Below, piece after piece: positions 29,582 to 30,952 of a stretch of DNA of 60,358 bases. The notes under the pieces were generated by a model. The model was given only the letters and a program-made list of their open reading frames with translations, was not told the origin of the DNA and ran no database searches. Position 1 is the stretch's first letter. The number at the start of each line of letters is the position of its first letter. Source of the stretch: Porphyromonas sp. (GTDB taxonomy: Bacteria; Bacteroidota; Bacteroidia; Bacteroidales; Porphyromonadaceae); NCBI GenBank assembly GCA_030529525.1, contig JAUMWS010000001.1:1-60358 (forward strand), in the 5' to 3' direction. A program made the position numbers and the translations under genes.

Positions 29582-30588
29582 GTCGTCTCCACGTTTGTAT
29601 CGTATTTCATCTCTTTGAACAGTAGCATATCTTCATCAGTAACGGATGCAGTGGTTGTAAGCAAGTCGCCTGTGATGGCGGAGTTGATACCGATATAAAG
29701 CGCTTTTTTCTGGGTCTCTCTATCCATTTGAGCACGTCCGCCCGAAAAACGGAGAAAGGCTGTGGGATTGACCAAACGGAAGATAACGACCGAAAGTAAA
29801 AGCTCTTCGGCAGAAAGCAGAGCGGTATCTCCCAATGGCGTTCCGGGTATAGGCTGAAGCATATTGATAGGAATACTCTCCACTCCGAGGCTTTGAAGAT
29901 AAAGCGCAAACTCTATACGCTGCTTTCTATTCTCCCCCATACCGATGATTCCGCCCGAACAAACTTTCATCCCGACCTTTCGTGCTGCGGCGATCGTCTC
30001 CTCTTTTTGCTGTTGTGTATGTGTGGAACAGAGTGTAAGAAAGTGGGAGGGAGCACTCTCCATATTGCAATGATAGGTGGTAACACCGGCTTCGTAAAGC
30101 ACCTTTAACGTCTCTTCCGTAGCCAGTCCGAGCGATGCGCAAAGGTGCAGAGAGGGTTCTGTCTTTCGGATTTCCCGGTATATTGCGGCATATCTCAGTG
30201 TATCTATCATGCTGGGACGCCTACCGCTTGCCACGAGTGAATACCTTTTGATTCCCTTGCTTCTATTATGTACAGCCTGCTCCAAACACTCTTGGGAAGA
30301 GAGTATAGGGTAGGTTTTGCATCCGGTATTGTAGTGCGCACTTTGGGCACACCACTTACAATCTTCCGGACATTTACCACTCTTTACATTGATGATGCTG
30401 CAAGTGTCGAATCCGTCCCCGTGCAGCGTTCGGGTTATGGTATGACACGCCTCGTAAAGCTCCTCCACAGGATACTTTTCAAGCACTTTTTCTACCTCTT
30501 CTATACTTTGAAGACGCCTACCGCCAATAATCTCCAGAGCCAACTCCGATGCGGTCCCCGGCAACTCTTTATACTGTTGCTTTGTCAT
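29569..30588 (-). CDS. bioB: Biotin synthase
   Basis: Radical-[30 protein letters not shown]. The likely start is ATG 30588 (MTKQQ); the longer ORF runs through a terminator. Confidence 0.96.
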
Positions 30589-30952
30589 TGTGAAACATAG
30601 GATAAGAAAATACCCACCCTTCGACACAAGAGCCGAAAGGTGGGTACATGTATGTAGAGATTGCGGCAATGCCACAACCTGTCTCGTTGGTAGAAGATGC
30701 AAAACAGAGTATTTCGACAGCTTTCTCCTGCTCCTCTTCGTCCGGAAGAGGCTCTCTCAAGAATGAAAGAAGCTCCTGAACAGCGACCGAAAGCCCTTTT
30801 CCGGACTTCATCAACAGTCTCTCTGCCACAGGAGAACGGAGTGTCCCTATCGTTACAACCCTGCCGACACTCATAAAAACGGCGTAAGCCTTACGGCTCC
30901 ACCTGCGGAACCGTAAGGCTTTACTGCCTCTGTTATGTGTCAAGATGTGCAT
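30569..30952 (-). CDS. Putative leader peptide of the biotin operon (127 aa)
   Basis: ATG 17 nt after the POT stop; basic/aromatic N-terminal motif [23 protein letters not shown]; overlaps the bioB start by 20 nt. Confidence 0.65.
30604..30646 (-). terminator. Intrinsic terminator/attenuator just upstream of bioB
   Basis: Minus strand UACCCACCUUUCGGC-UCUUGU-GUCGAAGGGUGGGUA-UUUUCUU: a 15-bp stem with two G-U pairs, then a U-rich tract. Confidence 0.8.

Follow-up and report, generated by a model that had tools for sequence, protein, structure and literature searches.

A conserved leader peptide ahead of biotin genes in Bacteroidales as a candidate ribosome-mediated attenuator

In the pyrBI system, the leader ORF pyrL ends in or crosses an intrinsic terminator, and a ribosome close behind RNA polymerase allows read-through without any antiterminator; it is through pausing of RNA polymerase that the signal acts there, and the sequence of the leader protein is unimportant. 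In other systems the nascent chain itself turns a metabolite level into ribosome arrest, as in TnaC (Trp), SpeFL (ornithine) and Arabidopsis CGS1 MTO1 (SAM), and in CGS1 the arrest takes place within the enzyme's own N-terminus and lowers its synthesis. Biotin genes are also controlled by BioR, which like BirA/bioO and BioQ is a DNA-binding repressor acting at initiation, and to our knowledge a biotin riboswitch has never been found. BirA and BioQ are both named in PMC6593275. In Bordetella pertussis, the long uORF CruR (DUF2946) lies ahead of a TonB-dependent transporter operon, where its nascent chain responds to a micronutrient and thereby governs termination; it is characterized by CXXC, a C-terminal RAPP arrest sequence and Rho-dependent termination, and its arrest means ON (PMC9426467). 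Within the Bacteroidota, the RQH, NAP-stop and NSP-stop uORFs of about 100 aa are arrest peptides that monitor Sec/YidC (PMC10987492, PMC12992588), and the word biotin is absent from the main text of these two papers.

We analyzed a window of 60,358 nucleotides from Porphyromonas sp. (GenBank assembly GCA_030529525.1, contig JAUMWS010000001.1), in which the leader, the biotin genes and the transporter gene ahead of them all lie on the minus strand. The leader ORF (127 aa, 30569..30952), for which homologs are known, begins with an ATG 17 nt past the stop of a POT-family oligopeptide:H+ symporter gene (30970..32529). It is followed by bioB, which encodes biotin synthase and is the first gene past the terminator (29569..30588; TIGR00433 above cut-off), bioA (28268..29581), a bioF-like gene (27145..28284; TIGR00858 as best match, below its cut-off), bioG (26165..26872; PF04301), bioC with an uncertain start (25401..26204; TIGR02072, just below cut-off) and bioD (24699..25397). 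As an earlier note on this DNA had described, the ORF lies directly before bioB and opens with a distinctive N-terminal segment, a hairpin with a U-rich tract lies inside it, the tract ends 15 nt before the bioB ATG at 30588, and the leader stop overlaps bioB by 20 nt. The hairpin and tract occupy 30604..30647 and begin 263 nt past the F15 codon; the stem (30647-30610) has 16 pairs and a folding energy of -28.2 kcal/mol, with TTTCTT following to 30604, and the element resembles an intrinsic terminator. The closest named protein is a hypothetical protein from Porphyromonas with 69% identity to the leader. The gap between the transporter stop and the leader ATG (30953-30969) is occupied by a 5-pair inverted repeat.

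The biotin leader resembles pyrL in that its frame crosses or nears a predicted terminator and no antiterminator pairing was found (median z 0.0, n=47 leaders); judged from the sequences, two marks of a pyrBI-type system are present, namely a selected leader ORF at the operon head and a predicted terminator within reach of a ribosome on it. Unlike pyrL, the biotin leader protein is under strong selection, and its N-terminal module is also fused to enzymes and receptors. With lengths of roughly 100-140 aa and no antiterminator, the leaders fall outside the trp/his type of attenuator. They also differ from CruR, since RAPP-like sequences occur in 0/117 leaders and CXXC in 7/117 (rows that include at least two duplicates), the terminator is of the intrinsic type and the predicted halt would mean OFF. 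The in-frame fusion of the module with BioB recalls the layout of CGS1, but no sequence likeness to the module was found for TnaC, SpeFL or CGS1 (TnaC and SecM patterns were found in 0/117 leaders), and here the predicted ligand is a scarce vitamin and a single module acts as leader, as enzyme extension and as signal-peptide extension. The Sec/YidC-monitoring uORFs share a size of about 100 aa and an occurrence in Bacteroidota with the biotin leaders; however, their C-terminal motifs were found in 0/117 leaders, which also have bio neighbours and no hydrophobic targeting segment (KD of the segment after the motif 0.58 in leaders vs 1.98 in receptors). When 57 members were searched with Pfam and NCBIfam, none matched a model of the extended signal-peptide motifs YSIRK, KxYKxGKxW or ESPR, even with E values as high as 1. 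Finally, the target genes and presumably the feedback logic are those of BirA/bioO, BioQ and BioR, whereas the element lies within the transcript and the BirA found here appears to have no room for a DNA-binding domain. No description of the module was found in full-text searches of the openly accessible literature, and we regard it as a genuine regulatory module that is widespread and apparently undescribed.

The first 49 residues of the leader (M1-K49, 30806..30952), delimited by alignments, the codon table and a dN/dS of 0.072, define an unnamed Bacteroidales peptide family with the core F15-x-R-W-S-R-K-x-Y-A-x-F-x-S-x-G-x-x-V-x-I-G-x-L38, plus K49. Leader residues 1-60 used as a query matched 27/61 genomes, and the matches were either 101-127-aa ORFs directly upstream of bioB or the N-termini of TonB-dependent receptors of ~670-720 aa, where the earlier note had placed such motifs. 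A profile built from leaders and receptors matched 121/251 genomes of the order (the genomes are kin, and counts of loci and genomes throughout are not independent). Removal of two chance-level matches left 119 genomes, of which 39 carry a short leader, 2 a BioB fusion and 81 a frame of receptor length (three genomes have both). Among 301 genomes sampled across the class there were 11 matches, 10 of them within the order, and the single match outside it is a leader upstream of the same TonB-dependent receptor family. The whole-library search returned 1689 clusters (50% identity, E up to 0.001), and those family members that were looked up are annotated as hypothetical or are concealed within BioB-BioA gene calls. 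Searches of Pfam and NCBIfam with the leader and 57 members gave scattered chance matches only; likewise, Rfam gave no match at gathering score in 20 loci and chance-level matches only in the window.

Alignment of 56 short leader rows, including one (L051) that turned out to be a fusion, demonstrates how the module is conserved. F0, W+3 and I+20 are invariant (56/56), K+34, which corresponds to K49, is present in 51/56, and the start codon is an ATG 12-15 codons before F in 54/56 and GTG in the other two. The leader frame is open in 56/56 rows, while the other two frames contain about 6 stops on average; this constancy, together with the recurrence of the terminator at a fixed distance, indicates that the ORF is more than a chance occurrence. 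Third codon positions vary freely, codons switch between CGN and AGR and between TCN and AGY, and dN/dS is 0.072 in the core, 0.29 in the N-terminal spacer and 0.39 in the tail (18 close pairs), compared with 0.070 for BioB (15 of those 18 pairs). These values show that selection on the module acts at the protein level and is as strong as that on BioB, which settles in favour of the protein the comparison of protein- and nucleotide-level conservation that the earlier note had proposed. Its description of the remainder of the leader as a low-information linker did not hold, as the conserved K49 is followed by an acidic patch from F+50 to F+62 and then by a Leu-rich stretch. The fraction of D/E is 0.34-0.42 at F+50..59 vs 0.04-0.13 in the three preceding bins, and in the window the patch is represented at the same family offset by D71-E76 (30725..30742), with Leu-rich sequence after it. 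The C-terminal end of the leaders is free, lying 83-223 residues past F. In the AlphaFold model, the leader is predicted to form a small unit with the order strand-helix-strand-helix (pLDDT 76-85 for residues 11-50; pTM 0.32). Foldseek found no match to the leader model among solved structures at E 0.001, and atlas look-alikes offered nothing usable.

Terminator counts given here rest on strict scans, a looser first scan having been positive in 29/54 control windows. Between F+270 and F+400, the strict scan called terminators in 43/56 leaders, with 0/56, 0/55, 0/54 and 0/54 calls in same-strand control windows, 0/34 in receptors and 9/56 on the opposite strand of the same region. When long stems were permitted, terminators were called in 50/62 leaders of the named set vs 2/62 controls, so that 13/56 and 12/62 leaders, respectively, are left without a call. 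In most cases the stem starts 260-340 nt past F, usually with 13-45 nt remaining to the start codon that follows. In 47/52 calls of the first scan and 50/50 of the named set, the leader stop lies past the stem start or no more than 17 nt before the stem, and the remaining 5/52 stops lie far downstream, inside the next gene. Among ordinary terminators in the window's genome the distance from stop to stem is 17 nt or less in only 38/281 cases and rises sharply at 19-21 nt, the pattern expected if ribosomes block nearby terminators; from this one genome's distribution we infer that transcription and translation are coupled in Bacteroidales.

The earlier note had the ORF translated through the entire hairpin, which is true of the window and represents one of two states in the family, since many Porphyromonas leaders stop 4-17 nt before the stem. 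It had also offered either termination or translational coupling of bioB as the device. Of these, termination is favoured, because the distance between motif and terminator is maintained and the leader stop floats freely relative to the start of bioB. Coupling is disfavoured as the main device, the stop ranging from far inside bioB to before the hairpin.

The genes next to the module are almost exclusively biotin genes, and since the searches were by sequence this result is not circular. Of the 55 short ORFs whose next gene could be seen, 53 are followed by bioB or bioA and the other 2 by the TonB-dependent receptor. Among the best 80 of 407 named loci, which are mostly from Bacteroides and Phocaeicola, 80/80 precede or are fused to bio genes (62 leaders before bio genes, 18 in frame with BioB), in agreement with the earlier note, which placed similar motifs near such genes. 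No motif match was found in 22/65 bioB genomes. Five genomes have the leader at the head of a bioA operon, with bioB elsewhere and leaderless (L062/G247, L063/G165, L086/G273, L093/G135, L094/G283). Sixteen of the 18 in-frame fusions lack a terminator and have a short linker, F and the BioB Met being 45-53 codons apart; the NCBI proteins of B. stercoris and B. cutis have this module-BioB form. A quick BioB tree, from which a truncated fusion (G139) and rows without a full BioB segment were omitted, requires 4 changes for the fusions, which may nevertheless have had a single origin. In B. thetaiotaomicron, BT_1442 is 2415 nt long and its start site lies 28 nt upstream of the gene (PMC7366714, supplement); this length suggests the BioB fusion form.

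The module thus occurs in three layouts: a leader ORF before a bio operon, an in-frame BioB fusion and the N-terminus of a TonB-dependent receptor. The receptor family of the third layout is BtuB-like and nearly always single-copy, and is present in 129/251 genomes (for example, L152:4992-7028); its closest solved relatives are of the BtuB type, with no specific family above cut-off. It occurs in 13/65 genomes with bioB vs 116/186 without, counts in which kin are not independent. The receptor gene lies directly upstream of bioB in three genomes (L109, L150, L151), and in three genomes it lies downstream of bioB and a sodium:solute symporter gene. We consider the family a candidate outer-membrane biotin importer, its substrate being inferred from gene context only. 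As such it is found mostly in genomes without bioB and bears on vitamin cross-feeding in the microbiome; PMC6593275 names BioY and YigM as biotin transporters. The symporter gene located between bioB and the motif-bearing receptor (L028:19-1470 in G025, also G029 and G033) encodes a candidate inner-membrane biotin or dethiobiotin transporter. In the receptor form, the module lies within a predicted cleaved signal peptide, with A-Q at F+38/39. Motif-less members have ordinary short signal peptides in 21/21 inspected cases, with no leader nearby, and for this reason the module is an add-on to the receptor rather than a requirement for export. As the receptor form lacks both K49 and the long spacer, the three layouts may work differently. 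The genome of the window, 89% complete, yielded no receptor of this family. In another genome (L097, G137), a leader ORF is directly followed by a receptor that bears the motif again, giving two modules in tandem.

With these observations, the conserved leader is probably a ribosome-mediated attenuator in which the nascent module halts the ribosome when biotin suffices. As long as translation continues, the ribosome would keep the hairpin from forming and RNA polymerase would enter bioBAFGCD; when biotin is sufficient, the nascent module of about 50 residues would halt the ribosome upstream of the hairpin, which would be left free to form the terminator, so that a halt would mean OFF. This polarity is proposed because in the BioB-fusion and receptor layouts, which have no terminator, a halt can only lower output, and biotin sufficiency is proposed as the trigger because the synthesis genes and the probable importer share the module. 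Such a device would combine pyrBI-type attenuation with a metabolite-responsive nascent peptide of the kind represented by CruR, TnaC, SpeFL and CGS1. The interpretation in the earlier note is partly supported, each of its predictions that could be checked in sequences having held. The attenuator is a candidate answer to how biotin synthesis is controlled in Bacteroidales, dominant gut and oral anaerobes with a BirA lacking the DNA-binding domain. A broader reading, which we hold only tentatively, is that the module is a portable vitamin-sensing nascent peptide, in effect a peptide equivalent of a biotin riboswitch, stopped on the ribosome by biotin or biotin-loaded BirA, and that one module would serve the whole Bacteroidales biotin regulon in three ways: as an attenuator leader, as a cap fused in frame to BioB-BioA and as an extension to the signal peptide of an outer-membrane biotin importer. 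If a nascent chain does sense a vitamin, the range of signals for ribosome-arrest peptides widens.

A promoter box of the form TAnnTTTG, the consensus given in PMC7366714, was found no more than 70 nt from the start of the leader in 31/38 and 69/79 loci, and in 0/18 loci of the Porphyromonas family, where the leader comes after another gene. Since the window has no such box at this distance, the transcript of the POT transporter likely supplies the leader there, and because the leader follows another gene, the hairpin would also end the upstream operon. Further upstream, a DUF4831 gene (32603-33934) precedes the transporter gene and has TAnnTTTG boxes at 33788 and 33732, from which the leader-bearing transcript may originate. 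Among order-level loci, the box ends 4-11 nt before the ATG in 19/31 box-bearing leaders, which would therefore leave little 5' UTR for an RNA switch; by their sequences, these 19/31 would be nearly leaderless transcripts, which are reported to be rare in Bacteroides (PMC7366714). No C-rich Rho loading site was found in the leaders, the C-G skew of the leader tail having a median of 0.02. In RNA reads from a relative with ~90% identity (1-2% of two single-cell runs from one study), placed on the Bacteroides hominis locus, depth was 7 and 13 on the leader vs 0.5 and 0.7 on bioB, the fit ending before the hairpin. This ratio of ~15-19x comes from 31 and 39 reads, with no control operon and with the medium not stated, and the excess is weakly consistent with premature termination. 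A 17-pair hairpin over the motif codons (30884..30924 in the window) is strong in the window, in L002 and in a few other leaders, and may slow early elongation in this lineage.

Several other explanations of the leader need to be weighed. That this motif-spanning hairpin is a family-wide RNA switch was rejected, as it stands out in only 9/56 leaders (median z -0.3 vs synonymous recodings). The more general proposal that a biotin riboswitch-like RNA underlies the conservation, with the ORF incidental, draws on the exact position of the window's 17 pairs over the motif codons, and is made very unlikely by the same 9/56, by the free third positions and by the failure to find an Rfam match in 20 loci or an antiterminator. 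Even less credible is the view that the leader is a functionless relic of the receptor's extended signal peptide, remaining from a receptor-bio operon that lost its receptor: such operons do exist (L109, L150 and L151) and could be the origin of the leader, but selection largely refutes the idea, given a dN/dS of 0.07, a frame that is open in every row, a terminator at a fixed place and a Lys specific to leaders.

Two further alternatives accept a functional peptide, and each appears to us improbable without being negligible. The leader could be a real attenuator that responds to another signal, whether an intermediate or cue (dethiobiotin, SAM, Fe-S supply, acyl-ACP or translation rate) or none at all, with a fixed low read-through. 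Attenuator architecture indeed names no ligand, and in the five genomes described above the leader controls bioA-F-C-D without bioB; however, the module also heads a receptor family that is enriched where biotin cannot be made and intermediates would be absent, and selection equal to that on BioB is hard to explain for a fixed damper. The module could instead act post-translationally or in trans as an Arg-rich RNA- or protein-binding mini-domain (an antiterminator, a degron or a BioB accessory), the overlap with the terminator providing feedback only. The small predicted fold, the mild selection on the tail (dN/dS 0.39) and the retention of the module on the finished enzyme in BioB fusions are all consistent with such a role. 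Set against it are the position of the module in a predicted cleaved signal peptide in the receptor form, the free C-terminal end of the leaders and the contact between frame and terminator, which a cis mechanism would require and which is almost always retained.

For the ribosome-mediated attenuator that we favour, BirA is the default candidate for the sensor. It is 256 aa long in the window's genome, and the open frame before its ligase domain is at most 49 codons in 29/30 relatives and 91 in one, so that, judged by length alone, BirA here appears to have no room for a DNA-binding domain and cannot easily act as a repressor, as the earlier note had expected for Bacteroidota. A biotin-loaded factor that recognizes the module once it has left the exit tunnel is slightly favoured over ligand binding within the tunnel because a spacer of 87-110 codons before the terminator is conserved, and the fixed N-terminal register and predicted small fold also lean towards recognition outside the tunnel. 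A complex prediction for BirA and the module scored 0.00, the fold of the partner being uncertain, and counts neither for nor against BirA. The MKM context of the biotin acceptor (BCCP) was found in 0/117 leaders, where the commonest lysine context is SLSKQK, and the module may be biotinylated in a non-canonical manner. Five shortened leaders (L219, L223, L242, L257 and L262) run into bioB in another frame 172-235 nt past the motif; four of these have no terminator and one has a hairpin at F+133. Together with the short BioB fusions, the F+133 case leans towards arrest soon after K49, and the five shortened leaders are natural variants useful for locating a putative arrest site.
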